Origin: Yuukianura sp. NJ FZ-2021
Taxonomy: Eukaryota
Reading direction: 5' to 3'
DNA length: 64,000 bases
Assembly (NCBI GenBank): GCA_046563655.1
Contig: CM102283.1
Span: 7,998,001-8,062,000 of the forward strand
Part shown: in pieces, positions 9,447-64,000 of the stretch
Layout: the number at the start of each line of letters is the position of its first letter
How positions within the stretch are numbered: the stretch's first letter is position 1
Translations under genes and position numbers: made by a program
Notes under the pieces: generated by a model
Seen by the model: only the letters and a program-made list of their open reading frames with translations
What the model was told of the DNA's origin: nothing
Databases searched by the model: none

Positions 9447-12400
9447 ATGAAAATTTATTTTCTATTTGCAACTCTACTGTTTCGGTAAGTTTTCATAATT
9501 TCCATTTTATTTGCATTTTCAAATTAAGAATTTTTGATTGTTTCGAAATTAATTTTGTTTTTGTTTTCAGGCCTTATACACCAAAATACAACTTCGATTA
9601 CCCCGAAGTGAGAAGAGATGAAAATCAAGTCGACGATTATCACGGAACTCAAGTAAAATATTTTTGTTGTTGTTAGAATGCTGTGTTAGTCTCTGTGACC
9701 TTTGACCTCAATGATAATTTTGTTTTTTTTCCCTAAAGGTCAAAGATCCATACCGATGGCTGGAAGACTTGGATTCACCAGAGACACAAGCTTTTGTTGC
9801 AGCGCAGAATCGCTTGACGATTCCATATTTGAGAAAATGTTCAGCCCGCAGCGCCATTCGAGCCAGTCTGACGCAACTCATGAATCATACGAAGTTTGGT
9901 ACTTTGGTCAAGAGAGCTGGACGCTACTTTTTTACTGAAAGTGAAGGACTTCAAAATCAGATGTAAGAAGATTCAAAATTTCAAAAAATAGTCAGAAAAG
10001 TTCAAAAATTTATCAAAAAGTTGGTTTTTGACTGTTTCTTTGACTTTTTCAGGAGTTTGTACACCATGGACCGTTTGACAGAAAATCCTCGACTTCTACT
10101 GGATCCAAATACTTTGTCTTCCGATGGAACCACTTCAATTGCTAGATTTTTTCCATCTCCGGATGGGAAGCACTTGGCTTTCCAATTGTCTAAAAAAGGA
10201 TCTGATCTGGAGAGTATTCACTTTATGCATGTAGAGTCCAAGATGCAGTTCAAGGACGAAATGGAGGACACCAAGTACACAAGTCTCAGTTGGACTCATG
10301 ATGGAAAAGGAGTATTTTACACCGTGAGTTCTTAAAATTTTAGTATTTCAACCATTTATGCAAAATATTAATCGATTTGTGCAATTTAAGCAAGGTTGTA
10401 ATCGATTTTTTCAATTTTAATTTTTAGAAATACTGGTTGGAGAAAAAAGACGGAAACGGGACAGAGAGTGGAGAAATTGCGAGGCGACAACTTTGTTATC
10501 ACGTGATGGGAACCAATCAGGATTCAGATACGATTGTCGTTGACGTCTTTGAGCAACATCCAACATGGTCATGGTATGTCCACATTTTGAAACGCTTTTT
10601 GAAAAAAAAAGAATTTAAAAAACTTTTTATATGTTTTTTTCGAAATGTAATTTGTAGCTCCGGAGAAGTTTCAAATGATGGCAAATATTTGTTGGTTGAA
10701 TTTGAAGAGGAACTTGGTCCAGTACAAATTCATTACATTGACCTAGAAGAATTTTTGAAAACTTTGGAACCTTTCCCAAAACTAATTCCAATTGTTGAAA
10801 ACTTCCAATCCGAGTATTACGTAAGTTCGAAATTTTTTGAATTCAAACACTTCAAAATTTGAAGTTTTCAAGATTTTTCTTTGTTCCACAGTACATTACA
10901 AACGAAGAAAAGAATTTTCTGTTTCTCACAAACAACAATGCTCCTAACTGGAGAATCGTCGGAATCAACTTTGACCAGCCGCAAGAACAATCCTGGAGTG
11001 TCATTGTACCTGAAAATCCTAAGGCCGTTTTGGAATGGGTGTATGCCGTTAACAAGTAAATTTTTCAAGAAAATCATTCTAAGAATTTGAAAATTTCAAA
11101 TTTTGATACATATTTGATTTCTTTAGAAATCGGTTAGTGATGAGCTACTTGGAAGACGTCAGAAGTACAATTCAAATCAGACCGTTGGATGGCAGAACGT
11201 CATTGGCCACATACCGACTTGAGCCTGGGACTGCTTATGCTCTTTACAAAAACAAAGATGATCATGAATTCTTCTTTGCTTATGAATCCATCATAACGCC
11301 AAAACGGATCTACAGATTAGATTTTCGGGAACACCAGAACTCTCCATCGGTAAAAAAAAATACAGTAGAGCCTCCAATTCGGCAACTTTTCTTGAAGAAA
11401 ACTTAAACGCAAAAACTTAGGATTTTTTTTTTTGGAAGAATCTTAACTTTCAACTGCTAACACTTTTTTGTGTTTAAAAAAGTTTACTGTATTCTTTTCA
11501 ATCGGCCAATCAGAACGAGTTGCAAAATCGGAGGTCCTACTGTATAAGTCATTGTATATTAAATGATAAGCGTTCTTCCTAAATGGAACAATTGAATAAT
11601 TTATTTGATGCTTTTAGTTACAAACGTACCGGTCTACAACAGTTCCTGGATTTGATACTAAGGATTACGTGTTGACTCAAGAGTTTTACACGAGCAAAGA
11701 TGGAACTAAAGTCCCAATGTTCTTAGCCCATAAAAAGGATTTGGAACTGAACGCCTCAACGCCATCTTTCCTGTACGCTTATGGCGGATTCAACACCATC
11801 ACTCTACCCGATTTCTCCGTGGACCAAGCCGTCTTTATGAAAAACTTCAATGGGATTTATGCCATTGCCAGCATTCGGGGAGGCGGGTAAGCTCAAAAAC
11901 ATAAATCCACAATGGGCTTTTAGTTTTTCATGAATAACGAAACGTTACAAATGAAAAAGGGGCTTCGGACATAGTTAAGCTTTCAGACTTTTAGTAAAAG
12001 TCGGATTTTGTTTTTTCGTTGCAGTGAGTATGGTCTCCAGTGGTATGATGGCGGGAGACTTCAAAATAAACAAAACACTTACGACGATTTCCAGGCTGCG
12101 GCGGAGTACTTGATCCAAAACAACTTTACGTCGTCGGATAAACTTACTATTCAGGGAGGTTCCAATGGTAGGTCAAAGGTGGTGGAAGATTTTTCGAAAA
12201 AATGGAGATTTTTCTAACAAAATGTTAAAAATTTTCAAAATTTAAGACTATTCCAGCGTTTTTTTTTTGCTTTGAGGTGGACTGGTAGTTGCGGCCGCAG
12301 TAAATCAGCGTCCAGACTTGTACGGAGCTGCGGTGGCACATGTAGGGTAAGAAACAGAAAATTGAAAATTTTAGTTTTTGTACGAAAAGGTTAGGTAAAA

Positions 12401-20342: not shown

Positions 20343-20878
20343 TTTGAGGAAATACTGAGGAAAGCGTTGCTGAGAAAACTAAGGAAAGCGTCTTCTGAGG
20401 AAAGTTTGAGGAAATCGTCTTGAGGAGACTCCGAGGAAAGCGTTTTCGAGGAAACTGAGGAAACTCCGAGGAAAACGTTTTTGAGGAAACACTGAGGAAA
20501 GCGTCTTCTGAGGAAACTGAGGAAAGCGTCTTCTGAGGAAACTGAGGAAAGCGTCTTCTGAGGAAACTGAGGAAAGCGTCTTCTGAGGAAACTGAGGAAA
20601 GCGTCTTCTGAGGAAACTGAGGAAAGCGTCTTCTGAGGAAACTGAGGAAAGCGTCTTCTGAGGAAACTGAGGAAAGCGTCTTCTGAGGAAACTGAGGAAA
20701 GCGTCTTCTGAGGAAACTGAGGAAAGCGTCTTCTGAGGAAACTGAGGAAAGCGTCTTCTGAGGAAACTGAGGAAAGCGTCTTCTGAGGAAACTGAGGAAA
20801 GTGTTTCTGAGGAAAGCGTCTTCTGAGGAAACTGAGGAAAGCGTCTTCTGAGGAAACTGAGGAGTGTTTCTGAGGAAA
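20343..20878. repeat. 25-bp tandem minisatellite (GAGGAAACTGAGGAAAGCGTCTTCT)n
   Basis: About 14-15 near-perfect units from ~20490-20860 with degenerate flanks. The 25-aa periodicity of the spurious ORF equals three units. Confidence 0.95.
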
Positions 20879-26899: not shown

Positions 26900-27499
26900 C
26901 GAAGCACGCCATTACATCAGAAAAAAGACATAAGCAGAAAAGACATAAGCACCAAACACATAAGCAGGAAAGACATAAGCAATGCAAAGACATCAGCACT
27001 GTAAACACATCAGCACGAAACACATAAGCAGGAAAGACATAAGCATGTCAAACACATCAGCAACGTAAACACATCAGCAGATCACAAATTCCTCCGATAT
27101 TAATTTGAACTGCATTGACGTTTTTTTTTAATTTTTTAGTGAATGTAGTTATATAAATAACGTTAAAATTAAGGTTATGGTCATCTTTAAGTAAATACCA
27201 TATAGTAGGATTAGTTACGTAGATTCTGTTAAAAATCATTAGGTTAGGTTTGGTTAGCACACGAAACTGCTCGAAACGCCACAATGCAATTTTTTTTAAT
27301 TTCAGAGGAATTTGTGATCTGCTGATGTGTTTAGGTTGCTGATGTGTTTGACATTCTTATGTCTTTCCTGCTTATGTGTTTCGTGCTGATGTGTTTGCAG
27401 TGCTGATGTCTTTGCATTGCTTATGTCTTTCTTGCTTATGTGTTTGGTGCTTATGTCTTTTCTGTTTATGTCTTTTTTCTGATGTATTGGCATGGACCC
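26900..27499. mobile_element. 600-bp non-autonomous foldback/MITE with ~190-bp TIRs and an 8-bp TSD
   Basis: Arms 26905-27094 and 27305-27496 are reverse complements built of ~15-bp AAA(G/C)ACAT(A/C)AGCA subrepeats. ATTCAGTT is directly repeated at 26892-26899 and 27500-27507. Confidence 0.9.
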
Positions 27500-32048: not shown

Positions 32049-34549
32049 ATGTGGAGTCAATTAGTTTGGGTGTTGCTGTATTGCGGTACAAAGTGGTAAG
32101 ACATTTATTAAAAAACTTAAAATTTTGGAACACAAATTCATTAAAAAATTTTGCTTTTTAGTTTGGCTGACGACTATTATGTAAAGTTGAGACAAAGTGG
32201 AGGGAGCCACTGTCTCATTTTGTCAGAGGAGAAGATACAGCGCTACAGAGGCTACGCAGATGACTCAGAAAATGCTGTCTCCATTTCAACCAAGTCGGCC
32301 GTATCATATCCAGCAGATTCCAATATCCGAACGCATTCCGAAGACAATGACCTGCTAATTGAAATTTATGCCCGGAAGAAGGAAAACGTTGATGCATACG
32401 TTCAGACGCACTGCAAAAGTACTTCCCACGTACAGCCACTTATACTTCGAAGTTCAGAATCAAAGCCCGAAATTGTAAAAATCGTGGACTCAGGAAATCA
32501 GAGCAACCGAATCGATTTGGTTTTTATGGGAGACGGTTACACAAGCAACGAACGGCAAGGTTAACTTTTATTAAGAAGCAAAAGCTACTTTATGCATGGA
32601 CCTTGTCTGTCTGTCTGTCCGGCTCTTGCAAACAGTGAAACTATAAAATAATGTCTTTTTTTATTACAGATTTTTTTGATGATATGAACCGACTAGTGAA
32701 GGACATGTTTGAGGCCACTACGTTCCGTTCCTATTTGCCACTGTTCAATATTTGGGCTATTTTTGTGAAAAGCGTTGACTCTGGAATTGGGTACACAAGA
32801 CCACGGAATACAGCATTCAGACTTCATCGCGATGCTGGCCAATTGCGAGGCATCTTTCCTGGTAACGACACAGTTTTCGATATTTCGATAGTTTTCGATA
32901 TTTCCAGTTGATGAAAAGTGTATCTAACTTTTTTGACATCTTAAAACCTTTTCAGGCAATCCATCTCGTGCTCGCCAAATTTGTGCGCTTACTGGACCAT
33001 CGGGTTATACAACTTGCACAATTTTTTTTTAAATTGTTCTAAATTTATGTGTATTGAAATCTAGGATGCGATTATCCAACTTTGATTGCAAACGATGATT
33101 ACTACGGAGGCTTGGGCGGCGAATTTGTCATTTCCACTAGAAGCAAAAGGACTGGGACGATCGTACTTCGCCAGTAAGATTTTATGCGAAAAAGGTTATA
33201 AGTCGCAAGCAAGGTTCCTAAACAAAAAAAATGTTTGTTTTTTCTACACCAGGTTGTCCAATAACTCCGATGTTTTCCATTTTGTCAAACAATTTGAAAA
33301 AAAAAACTTTTTCCTATGGTAATTATTTAGCAATGGTAGTTGGGAGACAAATTGTTTGAAGCAAAATTTTTGCAAACCCCGAGTTATTGGAGAACCTGTT
33401 GTAGGAAATACAATTCGGTTGTCAAGGAACCTTGGTCGCAAGTATTCTTGCTACTGTCATTCCGTTTGTTTTGTTTAGTGAAATGGGACATAACTTTGCG
33501 AACGTAGGAGAGGAGTATGACAATGGGTACGTCCGTATAGTCGAGAAAATTTTGTATTTTTTTTTTTCGCAATTTTGATTTTATTATTTAGTTATATGTA
33601 TTCCGGCGTAAATTCAGCGCGGACTGTTACATTTTTGGGTTGGAAGCACTGGCTAACTGGAGAAAAGCGTGAAGAACGAGCAATATTTCGACTGAATGCT
33701 TATCCATGGAAAGATTTGAGCAAAGGAGACTTTGAAAAACAGTTCAGTTCGGATGGAAAATACTTTCGGTGGAACATCATGGTCACAGTTTCAGCTGCTG
33801 GAGAGGCAGATTCACTCGAATTCCGATTGGACGGTGAAGTTTTACCTTGGAAGTCAACTGGCTATGACGATCGAGAATTTTATAGATGGACAAGCAATGA
33901 AGGATTTACAAAGGGACTTCACACGTTCAGTGTCCGTTCCAAAACGACTCCAACAAATTCAAAAATTCCACGCATGATTTGCTCTGTCAACATTCACGAG
34001 TATGGAAATGAACAAGAATTTCATGCTGACAATGAGTACATCAGTGCCTATCCAACCTGGAACGTTTATGGAGTCAAGTCTTTTCGTCCAGGAAATGAAA
34101 AATGTGACTCAAAATTTTCTTGGAAAATATTTTTTCAACTTATTTTTGAGCAGATTTTGAAACTGTTTGATTTTTCAGGTCTGATGAGAAATATGAGCAG
34201 CACTTCGTTCTGCAGCGTCTGCAAAGAGGGCATGTGGCATCAGTTTTTCAAAAAAATTTCTCTGATTGACAATGTCACTGTGGATGAAAATGGACCAGAC
34301 ATGAAGAAATTGACTGTCCACACTTTAAAACTTGGTCAATTGCGGGATCCTACTCATCAAATTCCAGGAGAAAAACTTAACGTGTGTTGGCATTTGAACG
34401 GAAAAGAAGTCGTGAGTTTGCGCGACCAGTTTGAAGTTTCCGCTGCTTGTGGATCAGGGACATGGACTGTCCGTGTTACATTTGTTACTCCCGAGGTCAG
34501 GTCGGATCCCAAAGGACTTTTGACAGCCACGCTATCAATTCGCATTTAA
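32049..34549 (+). CDS. Secreted M64-family (IgA peptidase-like) zinc metallopeptidase, copy 2
   Basis: Signal peptide MWSQLVWVLLYCGTK..LA, then NRIDLVFMGDGYT, TFRSYLPLFNIWA, CDYPTLIANDDYYGGLGGEF, VLRH|EMGHNFANVGEEYD and CLMRNMSSTSFCSVCKE. Eight exons, frame intact. Confidence 0.88.
33245..33403. mobile_element. TA-flanked MITE in an M64 intron
   Basis: TA-CACCAGGTTGTCCAATAACTC ... GAGTTATTGGAGAACCTGTTG-TA inverted ends. Confidence 0.6.
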
Positions 34550-34987: not shown

Positions 34988-37618
34988 ATGCTGAAGCAAC
35001 TTTTTCTGGTTGCGTTACTATGCGCCAGTTGGTAAGTCCGACCCCATTTTTTAGAAAAATTTTTAAAACAGTTATTAAAGTTTAAAATGTTTAATATTTT
35101 GGTGATTTAAAATTTTTGAGCTTAGTAGCGTAACAAAGTGTTTTTTTTTTGTAGTTTGGCTGAGGACTACTATGTAAAACTTCGTCAAAGCGATGAAGAC
35201 AAGCACTGCATCATTTTGACAGAGGAAACCATCCAGCGCTACAAGCGTTTCAGCGATCCATCAGAAAACGCTCTTTCCATTCGCACGAAACCAGCCGTGT
35301 CATATCCAGGAGACTCCGGTATTGGGAAGCCCACTGGAGACAAGGATCTCATCATTGAAATTTTTGCCCGAAAGAAGGCAATTCTGGACGAGCATGTGCA
35401 AAGTATCTGCAAAAGTACATCTCAAGTGGAGCCACTTGTGTTCCGAAGTCCAACTTCTGGAAAAAAAGTTGTCCAGGAACCAGAGGTTGTCAAAATCGTA
35501 GATTCTGGAGATCAGGCCAACCGAATTGACGTTGTTTTCATGGGAGATGGCTACACAATTGATGAGAGACAAGGTAAACATTTCTATTTTTCAAAATTTT
35601 GATGGTTTGGAACTTAAAATGGTGGATTTTTTTTTTGAATTTCAGAATTTTTTGATGATATGAACCGACTGACGAATGACATGTTTGCCACGACGACGTT
35701 CCGTTCATACTTGCCAGTATTCAACATTTGGGCAATTTTTGTTGAGAGTGTTGATTCTGGAATTGGCTACAATGGACCACTCAACACGCCGTTCAGACTG
35801 TTCCGAGAAGGTGGAGAATTGCGAGCTATTTACACTGGTAAGTTTAAAAATTTCGAAATTTTTTTAAATTTTGAAGAAAAAAAAATTCGGTGCATCCCTT
35901 GACTCACTGTTATACTTTTTGTTTTGCAGCGAGACCAGGCTATGCTCGAGAAATTTGTCAACTGACAGGACCTTCAGGTTAGCTGATTTTTTTTTTCTCG
36001 ATTTTCTGGAGTTAATGATCGCTCTCTGCAGTTCCAAAAACTACTCTGAAATTTTGAAGGAATTTGAAAGTGAAATTTAAAATTTGGAAATTTGTGTTGC
36101 AGGTTGCGACTATCCAAGTTTGATTGGAAATGACGACTACTACGGTGGACTGGGTGGAGAATTTGTCATTTCAACGAGAAGTACGCGTACTGGAACAATG
36201 GTACTCCGACAGTAAGTTTTTAAAAATCTGAAATTTCAAAATTTTGCACACAGATTCAAAAAAATGAATTTCTGATTCGAATTTTTTCTCTAGCGAAATG
36301 GGCCACAACTTTGTTGATGTTGGAGAGGAGTACGACAATGGGTAAATTCCAGCACATACCATATAAAAATCTTTTTGGAAAAATTCAAACTGTCAATTTT
36401 GAAATTTAAAATTTGAAATGTTTGTGTGTTGTAGATACGTTTACTCTGGAGTGAATGCTGCCCGTACTGTCGCAAGTTTGGGCTGGACGCACTGGTTGAC
36501 CGGCGAACAACGAGAGGAACGTGCCATTTACCGACTGAATGACTACCCATGGCTGGATTTGAGCACTGGAGAGTATGAGAAATCCTTTACTTCGGATGGC
36601 GACTACTCTCGATGGAAAATTGTCGTGTCCGTTTCTGCTGCAGCAGAGGCAGATTCACTCGAATTTCTACTGGACGGAGAAGTTCTGCCCTGGGAGACTT
36701 CTGGCTATGACGATCGTGAATTTTATGACTGGTTTGGAAACGAAGGCTTCACTGCTGGAAGACACACGTTCGGTGTTAGATCTAAAACGAATCCAACCAA
36801 TCCCGACGTTCCGCGCATGATCTGCTCTATCAACATTCACGAGTATGGAAATGAGGAGGAGTTTCATGCTGGACCGGAGCATGTCAGTGCTTACCCTACG
36901 TGGGACTACTATGGAGCCAAGACCTTCCGTCCAAATAACGAAAAATGTTAGTTTCAAAAAAGTTGAAAGAATTCTTATAATTTTTATAATTTTTTTAACC
37001 TAAGTTAATAAGTAGCGAAAGCTACTTCATAATCTTATATATCTCTGTCTGTCTGTCCGCCTCTGCCTGCCTGCTTGTAATTCTCTCTGTCTGTATTTCT
37101 GTCTTTTTTTTTCTGTACGTCATTTTTGTCTGTCTGTCTGTCTGTTTGCCTGTTCAGCTCAATTATCATTGCTTGAACTACTTTTTTATGTGCGGTTTTT
37201 ACAACCAGTTTAGTTTGCTAAACTTTTCCTTTCTTTCTTTTTTTTAGGTTTGATGCGAAATATGAGCAGTCCATCATTCTGCAGCGTTTGTCAAGAGGGC
37301 ATGTGGCACCAATTTTTCGAAAGGATTTCCATCATTGACGGTGTGACTATTGAGGACAATGGCGCAGACGCTAAGACCGTCACTGTCAATACTCTCAAAC
37401 TCGGTCAACTGCGAGATCCATCACTGCCAGTTCCCGGAGAGAAGCTGGACGTATTTTGGTATTTGAACGGAGAAGAAGTCGTGTCAGAGAGAGATAAGTT
37501 TGCAATTTCAGTTCCCACTGGGTCAGGGTCATGGAGTGTCCAAGTGACCTTTAGCACTGCAGAGGTCAGATCGGATCCTGATGGACTCATGACTGACTCT
37601 ATCGCATTTGAAGTCTAA
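34988..37618 (+). CDS. Secreted M64-family zinc metallopeptidase, copy 3
   Basis: Signal peptide MLKQLFLVALLCAS..LA, then NRIDVVFMGDGYT, LFREGGELRAIY, VLRH|EMGHNFVDVGEEYD and CLMRNMSSPSFCSVCQE. Intron positions match copy 2; frame intact. Confidence 0.88.
37005..37160. repeat. Interspersed repeat carrying (CTGT)n microsatellite; related copies at ~32570-32625 and ~46335-46370
   Basis: TAAG(T/A)AGC(G/A)AAAGCTACTT followed by TCTGTCTGTCTGTCC is shared between 32572 and 37009. A reverse-orientation GACAGACGGACAGACAGACA occurs at 46337. Confidence 0.55.
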
Positions 37619-40104: not shown

Positions 40105-42785
40105 ATGGAGCGACCGCACAAGCGACTGGTTCTTCCCGCGACAAAATTCAAGTATCCTATGCCAAGACGATTGGACATGAGAGACAACTTTTTTGGAGTT
40201 GAAGTTAGAAAATACATAAGCTTTTTCAATTCCCCATTTCAAAATTTCAGAACTGAATTTTTTAGGTGAGTGACCCCTACCGTTGGATGGAAGACATGAA
40301 ATCTCCCGAACTTCAAGCTTTCCTCAACGCAGAAAAGAAACTGACGACATCTTACTTGGAGGGATATCCAGATCGAGCCGCTGTTCAATCAAATTTTGAA
40401 AAATTATTTTCGCACACGAAAACATATTGTCCGAAACAGGCGGGATCCAAGTACTTTGTTTTAAAAAAGGAGGGATTGAAAAATCATGCGATACTTTACG
40501 TCATGGAAGGCCTCAAAGCCAAACCCAAGGTATAACAGCGTATTCCTCACCCATTCCCCACTGGGGACGGGGATTAATGGGGTAATCCCCGGGGTCGTAG
40601 ATGGGGATTTAAGGGGTGGTAATCCCCGGGATCGTATGTGGGGATTTTGGGGGTTCCGAAAATTCTGGTTCGATGAGATCCAGAAAGTCTCAGGAATGCC
40701 TCAAATTCTTAAAAATATACGAGATGCAGCTAAATTCAACGAAAAAATCTTGTTAAAATTTTGAAAAACCGCCGGAACAAATCTTTTCTGAACTTTTTTT
40801 CCAGGTCCTTGTTGATCCAAATCAACTCTCTTCTGATGGAACTCTGGCAGTGGCATCATGGGAACCTTCGCCAAATGGTGAACTGTTGCTGTACCTCGAA
40901 TCAAAGGCTGGCAGTGACTGGAGAACCGCGAGATTCAAAAACATTTCCAAAGATGAAATGTTACCCGATTTCCTCGAAAATATCAAGTTTACTCGCCTCT
41001 CCTGGACCAAAGACAATCTCGGTGTGATTTACAGCTGTTACCCTCAAGCATCTTCCCACGAAGCTTCAAATCACGAACGCAACGACTTTCAGCAACTGTT
41101 TTACCACCAAATTGGAACCGCCCAATCAAAAGACATCTTACTCCTTGGATTTCCAGATCATCCTGACTATAGATGTCCAGCAGTAGTTTCATCCTGTGGA
41201 AATTTTGTCATTGTGACACCAAAACGCGCTGTTGCCAACAATCTCGTCTATTTTTTGAATCTGAAACAATGGACGGAAGACGGCCGTCCACCGTCACCCG
41301 TCTTGATACCAGTTCTGGAATCGTGGGAAGCAGAATGTCAGTACGTGGCAACTAAAGACACGTATCATTATTTCATCACAAACAAAGATGCGCCAAACTA
41401 CTGTCTGGTGGGAATTGACCTTGACAATCCAGAACCTACTGGATGGATCCAACTCCTGCCAGAAAAGAAACAAAAAGTTCTTGAATGGTGCCAAATTGTG
41501 CAATCGTACATTTTTGCATCATACCTAACCGATGTCAAGTCAACTCTCCAAATTCATTCGTTGGACGACGGAATGCTGCTCCAATCGTTTCCTTTGGATA
41601 TTGGCAGTATCTACTCCGGCTCTACATCAATCGATGACGACAATTTTTTCTTTAGATACACAAGCTTCGACACTCCTGGCAGAGTTTACCGTATTGACCT
41701 CCGAAACTTCAAGCTGGACCGAAACAATAACCCAGGAAATACGGTACTGGTTGGCCAAGTTCCGAAAAAAGCGGGAATTCTTTTGTGTTTGAAATGTGCC
41801 GAATGTGGTCGGCCGAAAATGAGTTCGGAATTTAAAATTTCCCTGTTCAGCGACACGCAATTTTTGAGTTATGCGCCGCTGAATCTCGTCGTGAAACAAG
41901 TTTGGTTTGGAAGTAAAGACGGCACGAAAATTCCAATGTTCTTGGCATACTGTGCAAGAATCAAACCGAAGCAACGCCCATGTCTGCTTCATGGATACGG
42001 TGCACATGGAGTCATTACGAAACCGAGCTTCAGTGCGCTTTATACTATGTTTATGGAACATCTTGATGGCATTGTTGCTGTAGTGAATGCTCGTGGTGGC
42101 GGGGAATTTGGAAAACGGTGGTACGAAAATGGCGCTGTTTTTAAAAAACAAAATACTTTTGATGACATTCAAGCCGCAGCGGCTTATTTGGTCAACAAAA
42201 AGTATACGGACAAATCGAAGTTAGTTTTGCTTGGAACGTCAAGTGGAGGACTTGCTGCAGCGGCTTGCGTCAATCAGCGTCCAGATCTTTTTGGTTGTGC
42301 CATTATCAACGTAGGGATTCTGGATATGATGAGATTCCATAAGTTTACGATTGGACACAACTGGGTATCGGACTATGGATCGCCTGAAAACAAAATGGAA
42401 GCAATTAATTTGCTTATGTATTCGCCATATCACAATGTCGCTATGCCGGAAGACGAAACTGTGCAGTATCCAGCCGTTCTGGTGCTAACGGCTGAGGAAG
42501 ATGATCGGGTCGTTCCGTTTCATTCATATGTAAAATACTTAGAAATTATTATGATTTCTTAATTGTCAAAACTAATTAGTATTGAGTATTTTTATTGTGT
42601 TTTAGAAATATGTCGCTGAGTTACAAGCCGTCGTTGGCAAAGACCCGCGCCAGACGAAACCGCTTTTGCTTCATGTTGAGCCGAAAGCCGGTCACGGATA
42701 TGGGAAACCCACTCGCAAAATGGTGGAAGAAGGAACGGACATGTTTTGCTTCATGAGCTACGCTGTTCAACATAAATACAATTAA
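40105..42785 (+). CDS. PREP: Prolyl oligopeptidase (S9A) paralog 2, intron-poor
   Basis: KYPMPRR...FGVE|VSDPYRWMED, SKDGTKIPMF, NARGGGEFG, KQNTFDD. Triad motifs GTSSGG, EEDDRVVP and AGHGYGKP. Four exons; stop at 42783-42785. Confidence 0.92.
40536..40660. repeat. GC-rich CCCC/GGGG palindromic repeat in PREP2 intron
   Basis: GGTAATCCCCGGGG occurs twice among multiple G4/C4 runs inside an otherwise AT-rich intron. Confidence 0.55.
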
Positions 42786-56157: not shown

Positions 56158-58591
56158 TCATGACATTTCCAGGTCTTTGATTTGTTTCAGCAATCCTTCT
56201 AGACCGTCGATCTTCTGTTGTTGATTGACTTCTAATTTCTTTCCAGCCTGTTGGTCCTGTTTGAGCTTTTCAATATCTTTGACTTTCTGTAATATTACAT
56301 AAAACACCTTCGATTAGTGCATCATCTAATGAAAATTTTTATGTAGCTTAGTAATCATATACAAACATCCAGTTACCTTTCTCAGCTTATTAAGCTCTTT
56401 GTCCTTACTATCGTCGACTGAAGCATTTCCACTTGGTTTTCCTTGAGGGGTTTGCTGTGTCTGTGGTTTCGGTTTGGCTGCCATTGGAGCTCCAATGACT
56501 CCAGTTCGCTTATGTACCGGAACATACACTGGGGCTGTCTCACCGCCTTCTGTTAAACCAAAAAAATATCAACATGCAATCTACAGCAAGGATTCTAGAA
56601 AAAGTGAACATAGCCTTACTTTGTGAAACCTTTTCCGTAGTTTTGACAAACTTCGCAAGTTCGTCATCTGGAAACGTTCGTTGTTGTTCGTGAGCCGCAA
56701 AGGAAGTGATTCCAAAAAGATGCTTTTCGGCTTTCCATTCGAACACGGCTTTTCCCATGTAATTCCAAACCTTGTATCCATTGTCAACTTGCATTCTGGG
56801 TGCTGTTGTAGCAGTTATAAAGTGAGTACCATCTGTAATTCAGAAGACTTACAGTTAACATCAATGATGAAGCTAATCTTTACATTTGTAATTGAGTATA
56901 CCATTGAGCCATTCCACTTGAGTTGCATTTTGTGCTTTGAACTTGACTAAACATGTCTTGTGGTCCTTCACCTCCCAAATGTCAATGGTGCCAGGTAAAT
57001 TCCCGAGACCACAAATCAAAACAATGTTCCCTTGTGGATTGAAGTAAATGTCGTTCCGTGCTGCCACTTCATCCTTGAACTTGAAGATTGCGTCGCCCCT
57101 GGAGAACGACATGAAATTAATTTGAACTTTCAATTTACTTGATGTGTTGAGAAATGAATGATTACTTCATGTTGAACAAGGCTACACGTGTATTTGGCAT
57201 TTTTCCCACGATAACACAATACTCCAACGAGTTCGGACTCCACTGACAAGCATGGAGATCGGCTGAAAACAGGAATTGATACGTTAGTGGATAATTTGTC
57301 TCTCCGTGGTTGCAAATTATCACATTGACATTAGGGTTTACTTACTTTGTCCCTCTCCAAATCCATCCATTTGAACTTTGTACCCGCCACCTAGACCAAA
57401 CTAATTTGCATAAAAACTGGGCAGAAATACATTTCTGAAGGTACGGATTCGTAAATACCTTTGACGTCAAGGAACTCTAGAGATGTCTTCCCATAATAGG
57501 ATCCGCCAGTTTTGTCAACATCGGTCATCGTGATGACCAACACTGCGGTTCCTGTCCTATTCCACTTGATGCTCACGCGGTCCGACTGATATGAAGATCT
57601 TTGGCTAATGCGAGTGCTAACATCCGGATACTTGTACATTCGAATGTATGCTGGTTCTTGCTGTTTCCCCCCTTTAAAAATGAACAGTAATCGAGATAAA
57701 TATAGAGTGCACATTACTATTTAGGATTTATAACAATATTGTAAGAATAGGTACCTTACCTTTGATATAACAAACGTATGGAAAGTGGTCTTCGTTGTCA
57801 TCGCTAATTTTTGCACCACCGCCACGTCCAGGAGAAAAACTGTACGTTGAAATCTTCATTTCGTTGGGAGTCATGTTGACTTCTTTATGGAAATCATCTG
57901 TGCTATAAAATAGAATTCTTCCATCATTAGCGAGACGGCCATAAATTTGATCGTTCCAGGAGAATTGAGCCTCAGGTTGTTTAGGAGCTTGCTGAGAAAA
58001 GACCATTTTCGGAGTTAACTTCGACTCTTCCCCGTCGATTGACCAAATCTTAAAGTTTTCAGTGCCTGAGAAAGAAATATCGTTTACGTTGACCGTACAT
58101 GAAAGCATAGTTCATTAATAAAGGTTTTAGAAATCCTAACCTTTGCCTGGGTTTTCCCAAGAAATAAGGAATCGATTCTGTGGAGAAAACTGAGCACTGA
58201 GCATGCGATGTTTGATACTGCAAGTTTGGCTTCCGTCTTCAGTTTTAAAGATGTCTACGCTAAATGGTTAGAAATAATTTTAACATGAAATATATTTTCT
58301 AAATCAAGATTAGCCGTGTAGTGTAGTAGTAGTACATACTGTGATGCTCTCCCAACTGCAAAGTACTTCCCATCACGAGACAGTGTAGTAAATCTCGTTT
58401 CCTCATCAGCTTTCTGTAAGCCATCCCATTGTTTGTACGGTGCTGGACCAACCATTCCGTAAGTACCAAACGATTCCCTCACTGAAATGTCAAAAGAGAC
58501 AAACACTGAGCTTTACGTCAAAGTGTTGGTTAAAGTTAAAACATAACATGGAATACTTACCAACAAATACGCTGTCATTTGTCGTCGCCAT
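56158..58591 (-). CDS. EIF2A: Translation initiation factor eIF2A (WD40 beta-propeller), copy A with canonical C-terminus
   Basis: VRESFGTYGMVGP, FSPQNRFLISWE, WNRTGTAVLV..TDVDKTGGSYYG, FNPQGNIVLICGLGNL, TATTAPRMQVDNG and C-terminal KLRK|KVKDIEKLK..Q.AGKKLEVNQ..KI. Confidence 0.92.
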
Positions 58592-59253: not shown

Positions 59254-61686
59254 TTAATTGTGATTTTTCCTCAACTCATCTGTGAGTCGGGCATTTTGCT
59301 TCTGAAGGAGATCAATTTTCAGTTCTTGACAATCAGTCTTTACATGGAGCTCCTCGATTTGCTCCTGGCATTTTTCCAGTTTGTTTTCCATAGCGTCAAA
59401 CCCTGCTTCAATTTTTTCATCAATGCTCTTCAATACCTTCATTAAGTCGCTTGTGGAAATGCTTTCTGATCCTTTCGAAGTAGGAATGTAGGCCGAGACT
59501 GAATCACCGCCTGCAATGGTAGTTAGTGATGAAACGATGCAAACTGTTGTGTAGTAATGTTCAAACGTCCCAGAGCAGAGAATTATAATAGTAAACATAC
59601 CTTTCAGCGCAGTGTCTTCCTCGGGACTAAAATGCTTAGCGAGTTTATCGTCTGGAAACGTTCGTTCTTGTTCGTGAGCCGCAAATGAGGTGATTCCAAA
59701 CAGAAGTTTCTTTGCTCTCCACTCAAAAACTTTTTCACCCAAGGAATTCCAAACAGTGAATCCATTGTTGAATTCAACTTCTGGCGCTGTAGTAGCAGTT
59801 ATAAAGTGTGCTCCATCTGTAATTTTCGGAAAGTTACACGTAAGAGAAATCCGTTCGAATTGTCAATAGTGAATGTAAACCGTACCGTTGAGCCATTCCA
59901 CTTGGGTTAGATTGCTCACTTTGATTTTCTTTATACATTCCTTGTATTCCTTCACTTCCCAAATTTCAATCCCGCTGGCTGGTAAGTCAAAAAAACCACA
60001 CAATAAAACAATGTTCCCTTGTGGATTGAAATAAATATGGTTTCGTATTTCCACATCCATGTTGAAGTTGAAAAGCATTTCGCCCCTGCAATAGGAAAAA
60101 TCGTCAGTCTTATAATGAACTTCAATTGACTTGAACAATACGTCAATTTGACTTAGGCTTATTTGAGTTTTGTATATGAATTATAGGATAAGTGAATTTT
60201 TACTTTAGAGTAAACAGTGCTGCATGAGTATGTGGCAGTGCCCCCATGATGACACAAAATTCGTGTGAATTTGGACTCCATTCACAAGCATGTAGTTCGG
60301 CTAAAAAATTAAAGCAAAAAGCCGGATTAACAAACAGTAAATCACTTTTCAATAACTTGTAGGTAGCTGTACTTGCAGTTAACTTACTGTCTCCTGCAAT
60401 GCCGTCCATTCGTACTCGGAATCCATGACCTAAAGTAGGTCAATGTGGTTAAAAAAAGTTTGACTTTTAGCACAATCCATTTCTTAGCGCAAGGATTCGC
60501 AAATAACCTGTAACGTCTAAGAATTCCAGAGCCTTTTTCCTAGAATAGGATCCGCCTGTTTTGTCAACACCGGAAGTTGTTATGACAAGGACTGCTGTTC
60601 CTGTCCTATTCCATTTGAAGTATACACGGTCCGCCTGAAATGAGGATCTTTGAGTAATGGGAGTGCTAACATCCGGATACTTGTACAGTCGAATATAGGT
60701 GGGTTGTTGCAGTTTGTATCCTAGTACAAATAAGCAGTCATTTCATTAGAGACTCCAATTTCAGCATTTTGTAACCGAACAAGCATATGAATGAATACCT
60801 TTTACAAAACAGACATATGGAAATTCATCATAGCGATCATCGATAGCACGTGTACCACCACCATGCCCAGGAGAAAAACTGAACGTTGCAATCTTCATAT
60901 CGTTGGGAGTACCGCAGACTTCGTTGTAAAAATCACCAGTACTATAAAACAGAATTCTTCCATCATCCGAGAGACGGCCAAGAATTCGATCGTTCCAGGA
61001 GAATTGAGCCTCGGGCTGTTTAAGAACGTGTTGGCTGAAAACAAGTTTGGGAGGAGCTCCCTTTCCTCGGCTTCCTGGTTGTCCTTCTCTTTCGATTGAC
61101 CATATGTTATAGTTTTCAGTGCCTTACAAAAAAAGACACTCCTTGAATTTGGCAGTATATCAGAGCAAAGTCGTTCACTTTCGTTTCGAAATACTAACCT
61201 TTTCCCGGATCATCCAAACAAATAAGAAATCGATTTAGAGGAGAAAACTGCACGAGTAGAATGCCGTGATCGATAGTCCAGATTCGACTTCCGTCTTTCG
61301 TTTTCAAAATGTCGACGCTAAATTGTTACAAATGATTTTAATTAACACACAGAAATATACTCAGTCGTAATATTAATATAAGTACACATACTGTGATACT
61401 CTTCCAATAGCGAAGTACTTCCCATCCTGAGATAGTGTAGTAAATCTCGTTTCCTCAGCAGCTTTTTGTAATCCATCCCATTGTTTGAACGGTGGTGGAC
61501 CAACCATTCCGTAAGTACCAAACGATTCCCTCACTAAAAAAAAAGCCGTATTATTACGAAGACATCGATAATCACGAATTATTATTTTTTTAAAATGCAT
61601 CCCAATCCAAGCGACATACGACATATCCATACTACATACTACACTTTGCACTTACCCACGAATACACTTTTTGTTTCTGTTGCCAT
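59254..61686 (-). CDS. EIF2A: eIF2A tandem paralog, copy B, diverged with a different C-terminal coiled coil
   Basis: Same exon structure and high similarity to copy A through the propeller. Motifs are altered (SYYG>SYSR, GLGNL>GFFDL, APRMQ>APEVE), and the last exon is unrelated to the eIF2A C-terminus. Confidence 0.85.
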
Positions 61687-61941
61687 ATTCGTACTCGACT
61701 ACACCAATGTAGCTGAAGAATGAAAACCCAAGTTTAAATTCAGTCCCTCGATTAACTGCTTGTTAGATTACCGTAAGCAACTTGTCAAATAAAAGTAATA
61801 TGATTTTATGTTTATCCTCAACAACAAAGATCCGAGTGAGTGGGTGAGGTGCTGTGATTCAGGGTTGCTATAGCAACGGTAGTTTTGCTTTAAGGTTCAC
61901 CACTCTAGCTGTGATTAGTGATTTGATTAGTACTACTGAGG

Positions 61942-61995
61942 TACAGTGCCCAATTAATTAGTAACAGAGTTACAGTGCCCAATTAATTAGTAACC
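61942..61995. repeat. 24-bp direct repeat TACAGTGCCCAATTAATTAGTAAC x2
   Basis: Exact copies at 61942-61965 and 61972-61995 in the divergent promoter between eIF2A-B and the ATP6AP2-like gene. Confidence 0.8.
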
Positions 61996-62519
61996 GTACC
62001 CAAAACAAGAAACTACTGAAAAGAATGCCGAACAGCTGATGCTGGACAACGATTAAATATTAGAAGCTGTTTTAAATTACAAAAGTTTCCCGCCTTTATG
62101 ATTTGTGTCATTGTGTCTCAATATGAATGTTCTGCTTTTGGCGGAATTTATGCACTAAAATTTATTCTACTACGCGCCGTATTCAAATATCAAACCAAAT
62201 GTCCCCACCCTAAATTTCACCATCTTGATCTTATTGGTCCATTACGTTAATTGACAACTTAACTACTAATTAATTAATTAAAAACTCCTCCATCTCGTTG
62301 TGGCTGGAATCTGCTTGTCGTTGTTGATTCAACTCTTATCATCTGTTCTGGAATCCGGATATTGCTATACACGGTAAACAGCTGACTAAAAGATAATCCT
62401 TTGCAATTTCAATCCGCACTTTAAATGAAGAGAATTTAATTTTGAATTTATTAGTTTCACCAACTACGATTGGACGCTAGTTGAAACCTGTTCTCTACTC
62501 GGATTGCTACTGTGGAACC

Positions 62520-63032
62520 ATGAAATTCCTCCATTTTGTTTTGATTCTGGTCATCTTCGTAACAGGATTTCAGAATTCAGTATCAGCTGATTCATTAGTA
62601 AATGTTGACCGTGTTGCTCGGCAAGCTCCAGCTACCGAAGCTGCAGTGGAACCAAAACCTGCAGCAGTTCCTCAAGCCAAGAAGATGTCTTGGGAGAAAG
62701 CGGTACACTTGAGTTTTTTTTTTATTTTCAACGTTTGAAAGTCGTAATCCTTGCTCTTTTCTGTATCGTAGAAACAGCAATACAACTTGGCAGATCCTGT
62801 GAATGAAGACTACCCAGTAATTTTCAATATGATTTTATTCATCGCTGTTGCATTAGTTCTCGCACTGATAGCCATTTCCGGTAAGCATAGAACATTTGCA
62901 ATTATTATAAATTAACCCCAAACGTTTACTGGATGCTTTTTCCTCATAGTTTCAATCGCTACAATGGATCCAGGAAGGGATTCTCTCATTTATAGAGTAA
63001 CATCAGGACAAAAGGCCAAGAAGGACAACTAA
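62520..63032 (+). CDS. ATP6AP2: Miniature (pro)renin receptor / V-ATPase accessory protein ATP6AP2-like, 124 aa
   Basis: Exons 62520-62702, 62772-62880 and 62950-63032 encode signal peptide, RVAR, YNLADPVNEDYPVIFNMILFIAVALVLALIAIS|VSIATMDPGRDSLIYRVT..KKDN*, matching the conserved ATP6AP2 C-terminal signature. Confidence 0.88.
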
Positions 63033-63504: not shown

Positions 63505-64000
63505 TTAGTGAGAGTAGGCAAAGTTGGGGCCTTGGTAGTTGAAGGAATAGGCTGCTGGATGGGCAGCGGTGTAAGTCGTTTTAACAACAGGGGTAGCAAC
63601 ATGTTTCACTGCTGGAACAGCCACTGGAACACGGGCAACTGCTGGTACGTGATGTTTGAACAGAGCTGGTTGTTGAACAATTTTACGGTGAATCTTGGTT
63701 GCAGGTTCCTGGACTTCAATTTCCTGGACAGTTTCAATTGGTCGAGTCACTACAATACGTCTCGTGGTGATTCGTTCTCCTCCCTGAAGTTGTGGATCTC
63801 CAAGAGCATCGGCTACCTAAACTCACCAAGTTTCGTAAAATCTCAACAATCTTTACCAAATTTTTCGAAAATTTCCGATTTCTAAAATTTTTCTGATGTT
63901 ACCTGCAGGACTGAAGCAGAATCGGCTGGGGATCCATCTTTGTTCAGGATTTCCGTGACAGTGCCGCCCTTGGCAGTGAGCAGTTCCAAAAGTCGGTTTT
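63505..64000 (-). CDS. 3' part of a Val/Pro/Ala/His-rich cuticle-like protein (5' end outside window)
   Basis: ...SASVLQ|VADALGD...RRIVVTRPIETVQEIEVQEP...HHVPAVARVPVAVPAVKHVATPVVKTTYTAAHPAAYSFNY..*. The composition is typical of arthropod cuticular proteins; no R&R motif is visible. Confidence 0.55.

Follow-up and report, generated by a model that had tools for sequence, protein, structure and literature searches.

A predicted short ATP6AP2 gene lacking the family's usual ectodomain in Yuukianura sp., and a conserved clade of short relatives

ATP6AP2 is an essential and disputed protein with links to human disease, and its co-receptor roles for (pro)renin and Wnt belong to the ectodomain. The full-length protein, described in insects and vertebrates as ATP6AP2, the (pro)renin receptor or VhaM8.9, has about 300-350 aa and combines RENR_N with Renin_r. 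The Renin_r part runs from RxxR to a dibasic end in the order RxxR block, NLA...DYPVIFN, membrane helix and MDPG.DS.IYR.T tail, and the topology is type I. In mammals, the M8-9 or C-terminal furin fragment (CTF) is carved from a 350-aa precursor and is seen inside the c-ring.

The available text of a mouse study (PMC3817224) reports the ectodomain as required for V-ATPase biogenesis and calls it indispensable: in Atp6ap2-deleted fibroblasts, the C-terminal fragment alone gave an acidification of 38%, compared with 119% for the full length. In the accessible part of a study on flies (PMC5716037), a cleavage-site AxxA mutant rescued viability fully, so that cleavage need not matter, and survival was reduced by loss of KKxx. 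The same text describes an ER-retrieval role of the KKxx-type dibasic end for both fly and human ATP6AP2, and reports that patient mutations in the ectodomain weaken the binding of assembly factors (PMC5716037). According to the portion available of a 2012 survey, protein length is fairly constant across animals with complete genomes (PMC3354321).

A sister subunit naturally without the large lumenal domain is known from the ATP6AP1/Ac45 type. Yeast Voa1p, in which the ATP6AP1 counterpart is reduced to its helix, and citrus AP1 are still found in the c-ring, as given in the available part of a preprint (bioRxiv 10.1101/2022.05.01.490144). They belong to another family (Ac45-VOA1_TM) and to fungi and plants, not animals, and offer an analogy to a short ATP6AP2 rather than a case of membership. 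The ATP6AP2 homologue of plants, AP2, is also present in the c-ring according to the accessible text of two preprints (bioRxiv 10.1101/2022.05.01.490144; bioRxiv 10.64898/2026.07.01.735876). No account of a short animal ATP6AP2 was found in the literature searched, springtails (Collembola) included, and the short proteins treated below are already in public collections, nameless or as a domain-labelled hypothetical protein. A clade of animals whose gene codes for no more than the tail bound to the V-ATPase would amount to a deletion experiment done by nature. It would show what a minimal subunit comprises (cleavage block, linker, helix, KKxx tail), raise the question of what replaces the assembly role of the ectodomain, and offer a natural sequence for cross-species rescue.

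The window is the whole stretch of DNA that was analysed, 64,000 nucleotides of Yuukianura sp. NJ FZ-2021 (contig CM102283.1). On its + strand, a 124-aa reading frame of 375 nt was found at 62520-63032, consisting of three exons joined across two GT..AG introns. The complete three-exon, 124-aa gene with 69-nt introns that an earlier sequence-only reading had proposed was confirmed by this splice model and its GT..AG ends. An in-frame stop lies 13 codons 5' of the ATG at 62520 (ORF 62481..). The features of the locus and its 5' flank are:

61687-62519: intergenic gap, 833 bp, likely bidirectional promoter plus 5'UTRs (promoter role presumed)
61938-61994: tandem repeat in the 833-bp gap, 29-bp unit x2, 96% match
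62520-62702 (+): exon 1, 183 nt, aa 1-61; leader, short spacer, RVAR and Pro/Ala-rich linker
62520-62588 (+): predicted cleavable signal peptide, aa 1-23, from hydropathy; likely cleavage after VSA, read by eye
62610-62621 (+): RVAR, minimal furin-type R-x-x-R motif, aa 31-34
62703-62771 (+): intron 1, 69 nt, GTACAC...GTAG
62772-62880 (+): exon 2, 109 nt, aa 62-97 and base 1 of codon 98; carries NLA...DYPVIFN and the greater part of the membrane helix
62811-62966 (+), split by intron 2: transmembrane helix, about aa 75-103, from hydropathy
62881-62949 (+): intron 2, 69 nt, GTAAGC...ATAG, phase 1
62950-63032 (+): exon 3, 83 nt including the stop at 63030-63032; helix end and MDPGRDSLIYRVT cytosolic tail
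63018-63029 (+): C-terminal KKDN, dilysine KKxx-type ER-retrieval signal, from sequence

The position of intron 2 is common to relatives. Three exon-level ORFs on other contigs (P0004, P0007 and P0010) leave coding at the same residue as the window ORF 62772..62915, and since conservation is lost at the same residue in these three and in exon 2, the phase-1 intron position is shared. On the 5' side, an eIF2A gene, the exons of which are matched by Pfam eIF2A, stands head-to-head with the short ATP6AP2 gene, and its ATG at 61686 (-) leaves the gap of 833 bp listed above. The 29-bp repeat in this gap may be an element of a shared promoter. A second eIF2A paralogue lies on the minus strand at about 56600-58482, in tandem with the copy at 59257-61686 (-); six exon-level ORFs of the nearer copy each match a second site about 3 kb further, with 57-87% identity. 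The downstream neighbour at 63505-63816 (-) is an open frame with Pro/Ala/Val repeats and a Tyr-rich end, without a Pfam family, and by eye its product looks like a cuticle-type structural protein.

Family membership was evaluated with Pfam Renin_r (PF07850, cut-off 27.8 bits), which was scored exon by exon and not on the spliced protein. Exon 2 reached 44.4 bits over profile positions 20-54 of 79, and exon 3 reached 32.1 bits over positions 57-79 of 79. Exon 1 alone matched no Pfam family; it aligns with the N-terminal parts of the short homologues P0006, P0009 and P0015. For the Ac45-VOA1_TM domain of the ATP6AP1 family, there was no Pfam match for any exon at E<=10. When compared with the mammalian ATP6AP2 chains in solved V-ATPase structures, exon 2 aligns with residues 292-324, and the close homologue P0015 aligns with residues 288-350 of 351. 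The 141-aa P0006 aligns across the whole locus (62520-63023, E 3.8e-36). In P0027 and P0017, the Renin_r profile starts exactly at the RxxR motif, and the short proteins thus amount to a complete Renin_r segment preceded by a leader and a few residues. Judged from its sequence, the locus is a real gene of the Renin_r family without the family's usual ectodomain, and the alignments support the view that its product would start, after a leader of its own, at the RxxR block of ATP6AP2 and run to the C-terminus, with nothing of the protein that precedes this block.

The short protein has two hydrophobic stretches, aa 1-23 (Kyte-Doolittle windows of at least 1.6) and aa 73-106. Hydropathy and the model of P0015 together predict a type I single-pass topology with an N-terminal leader, one membrane helix and a short cytosolic tail. 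The AF2 model of this homologue (mean pLDDT 70) has a helix at 2-16, disorder at 17-53 and a helix at 71-98 (block-mean pLDDT 80-96), and it has no match in the PDB by Foldseek at E<=0.001, as expected of a single helix. The sequence-only reading had described a signal peptide, some 8 residues, RVAR and then the tail. Its short spacer held, at 7 residues when the predicted leader is taken to end after VSA (aa 23), but it had passed over a linker of 31 residues between RVAR and the NLA block (aa 66-68). This linker (aa 35-65) is 39% Pro+Ala and has neither Cys nor an N-glycosylation sequon. RVAR is a minimal R-x-x-R only, without a basic P2 residue, and the product of a cut after it would have 90 aa and a computed mass of 9.77 kDa.

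When compared with full-length ATP6AP2, the short gene lacks RENR_N, has 7 residues between leader and cleavage motif where the full-length protein has roughly 250, and carries a longer, Pro/Ala-rich linker after the site. The comparison with the mammalian M8-9/CTF is closer. Both span the same residues, the predicted mature form of the short protein being 9.8 kDa, but the short gene encodes the fragment directly, whereas the CTF has to be cut out of its precursor.

The canonical RENR_N (PF25294) is absent from the locus, where exon 1 has no family and the introns are 69 nt each. In the whole window, 16 ectodomain pieces from long forms gave no tblastn match at E<=1, and an HMM of the same pieces gave nothing better than E=5 against 2731 six-frame ORFs, both controls (the tblastn pieces and the home-built HMM) having less power than Pfam RENR_N itself. 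Of the long form P0012 (284 aa), just residues 222-284 find a match in the window. Loss of the ectodomain at this locus is supported as real. The claim of the sequence-only reading that the ectodomain has been lost and the V-ATPase fragment is encoded directly is upheld by the lack of ectodomain-like sequence in the window and by the gap of just 833 bp to eIF2A.

The window sequence itself is absent from the protein collections searched. Exon 1 (61 aa) and the exon-2 ORF (47 aa) drew a blank among longer proteins in a word-index search, which reflects the method, as an exhaustive search did find relatives: phmmer with exon 2 against 1.84 billion representatives returned 9 proteins at E<=0.001, namely four spliced short forms (107, 141, 133 and 120 aa), three exon-level ORFs, one partial protein and one long form. 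A profile built from the four spliced short forms (A1) then gave 63 proteins of 58-247 aa, a length range that leaves out complete long forms. Altogether, 68 proteins and the window were classified, and 22 rows, including the window, are short forms; the other 21 have 93-153 aa and the same layout. The only named one is P0027 of the springtail Allacma fusca (118 aa), labelled in UniRef as renin receptor-like C-terminal transmembrane segment protein. Over aligned columns, identity between the window and P0005, P0006, P0008 and P0009 is 49-64%, and the layout is identical, P0027 included. A further short form of 105 aa, P0060, lies outside the clade and hints at an independent case. The contiguous homologues would be either spliced transcripts or intronless genes, which points to expression in the relatives.

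The motifs at both ends of the Renin_r segment are well conserved. RxxR is found upstream of the core in 21 of the 22 short rows of the clade (P0032 lacks it), and its two Arg are invariant in all 23 rows of alignment A2, which holds 16 short and 7 long forms. The residues right after RxxR are mostly QA when short and long forms are aligned. Since RxxR stands in the same alignment column in full-length ATP6AP2 and in the short forms, the short forms begin, past leader and spacer, at the block where the long forms are cut. The tail pattern ..DSLIYRVTS.Q..KKDN is found in the 22 short rows with the exceptions of P0023, which ends in KKEN, and P0006, which has an aberrant extension after KK; the KK of the C-terminal KKDN is invariant in alignment A2. 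In a subgroup (P0008 and P0016-P0023), a conserved acidic peptide (..DDLISSL.VDD..) lies between leader and RxxR, and hence the spacer is not always a mere remnant.

The alignments thus show the short form to be conserved across a clade with a springtail among its members. The short gene is no singular curiosity; it belongs to a conserved family of 22 rows with one named springtail protein. The sequence-only reading had also raised the case that short forms are simply the norm in arthropods. This is not borne out, as the other arthropod matches are fragments of long forms, several of them with RENR_N, and arthropod clusters of 303 and 308 aa in the Atlas carry RENR_N. As leads only, the top-scoring Atlas rows (0.91-0.92) are clusters of short hypothetical proteins (101-114 aa) without a common Pfam family. 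Renin_r also has a minority share in one short cluster each from Apicomplexa (78 aa, 10%) and from Streptophyta (88 aa, 17%), which is not taken to mean that plant AP2 is short.

Long forms with the clade's tail are also found, namely P0012 (with a leader), P0025 (228 aa) and P0024, and P0012 keeps a weak RENR_N match of 31 bits against the cut-off of 39.4. They lend weight to the explanation that the short gene is an extra paralogue, with a full-length RENR_N ATP6AP2 elsewhere doing the assembly and the short copy serving as an additional or tissue-specific V0 subunit or having drifted to another role. The need for the ectodomain in the available mouse data (PMC3817224) favours it as well, and if a full-length paralogue exists, what is left is no more than a common gene duplicate that has lost a domain. 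On the other hand, the clade holds 22 short forms against 3 long ones and 1 fragment assigned to neither, a count to be read with the 58-247 aa range of the profile search, which excluded complete long forms; the exon-2 search, which covered all lengths, gave 4 short forms and 1 long form. The tail tree (47 rows and 62 columns, with 22 exon-level or very short rows left out) sets the clade apart from other animals at support 99/90 and groups the window with the short forms P0005, P0006 and P0015 at 100/97, with the long forms scattered between short forms. When P0026, P0060 and six rows with long branches are dropped, a tree of 39 rows remains, on which a minimum of two changes between short and long is needed. 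In an AU test on these 39 rows, for which the groups were defined after the first tree had been seen, the long forms as one clade survive (p 0.286), in line with paralogy, but all short forms as a single clade are borderline rejected (p 0.041), which fits poorly with one ancient duplication. No long form has a tail identical to that of a short form, the best pair being 52/58, and there is thus no sign of exons shared between isoforms. Weighing these points, we regard an extra paralogue as rather unlikely, while taking it seriously.

Two further explanations have little support. The short form could be an alternative transcript, in which exon 2 is joined to distant upstream exons that encode the ectodomain, exon 1 being used as an alternative start inside the larger gene. 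Animal genes often have such alternative starts, and the sequence beyond the window is out of view, but no direct evidence was found for it: the 62.5 kb upstream contain no ectodomain-like coding on either strand, and 56.6-61.7 kb is filled by the two opposite-strand eIF2A genes. Furthermore, the RxxR blocks of long and short forms are homologous and the block sits in exon 1 here, so a long isoform would need a copy of its own, and the relatives P0013 and P0031 read through to the 5' end of their contigs into sequence that is not ectodomain. We consider such a transcript highly improbable. That the locus is a decaying remnant or an assembly artefact without function has in its favour a place 970 bp from the window end, and is scarcely credible given an open frame, intact splice sites and conserved motifs, the same architecture in 21 independent sequences including the annotated springtail protein, and an intron position common to relatives.

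The reading that we prefer, and hold to be probable, is that the locus is a functional, lineage-typical short ATP6AP2 gene. The leader (aa 1-23) would direct the 124-aa precursor into the ER and be cleaved off, giving a membrane protein of type I topology in which some 50 residues face the lumen, a single helix (about aa 75-103) crosses the membrane, and some 21 residues, with KKDN at the end, are cytosolic. The KKxx end would keep the protein cycling to the ER, the site of V0 sector assembly, and the helix would be enclosed in the c-ring beside ATP6AP1, as in the case of the mammalian C-terminal fragment. Cleavage behind RVAR by a furin-type convertase is probable; it would take off 11 residues and leave a 90-aa, 9.8-kDa subunit equivalent to the classical M8-9. 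The loss of the ectodomain (RENR_N) would go back to a deletion reaching from the leader to the cleavage block. Expression, both cleavages, ER retrieval and incorporation into the V-ATPase are what we infer for the short protein.

We are also somewhat inclined to think that the short gene is the only ATP6AP2 gene of this genome. The wider proposal, that it is the sole ATP6AP2 of this genome and of a whole animal clade, probably springtails and relatives, is tentative, and we place it slightly on the doubtful side of an even balance. If the sole copy is true, an animal V-ATPase is assembled without the ectodomain that was called indispensable from mouse and human data. The natural test of the essential part that the sequence-only reading saw in the gene depends on this condition. 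Some compensation would then be needed, because the mouse C-terminal fragment rescues only partly. A strict RxxR with nothing to shed would also mean that the cleavage or the motif has a role of its own, possibly the trimming of a short pro-peptide that sets the mature lumenal end of the subunit.

Elsewhere in the window, no Rfam family and no tRNA were found, and several repeats and gene copies were observed. Two prolyl oligopeptidase genes are located at 9967-10862 (+) and 40757-42562 (+); one is a single open exon of 601 aa that covers most of Peptidase_S9_N and Peptidase_S9, while the second has smaller exons and lies 30 kb upstream of the single-exon one. Tandem copies of a multi-exon gene, with clearly similar translated ORFs, occupy 32145-34549 (+) and 35129-37618 (+), and a 342-aa ORF in the first copy (33521-34546) has no Pfam family at E<=0.001. 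At 20349-20878 lies a minisatellite with 14.4 copies of a 25-nt unit (96% match) and with higher-order periods of 65-100 nt, across which all three frames of the minus strand stay open for 180-215 codons. Two arrays with 15-nt units, at 26924-27081 and 27320-27475, are separated by about 240 bp, and from their units, AAAGACATAAGCAGG and CTTATGTCTTTCGTG, they look like reverse complements of each other.
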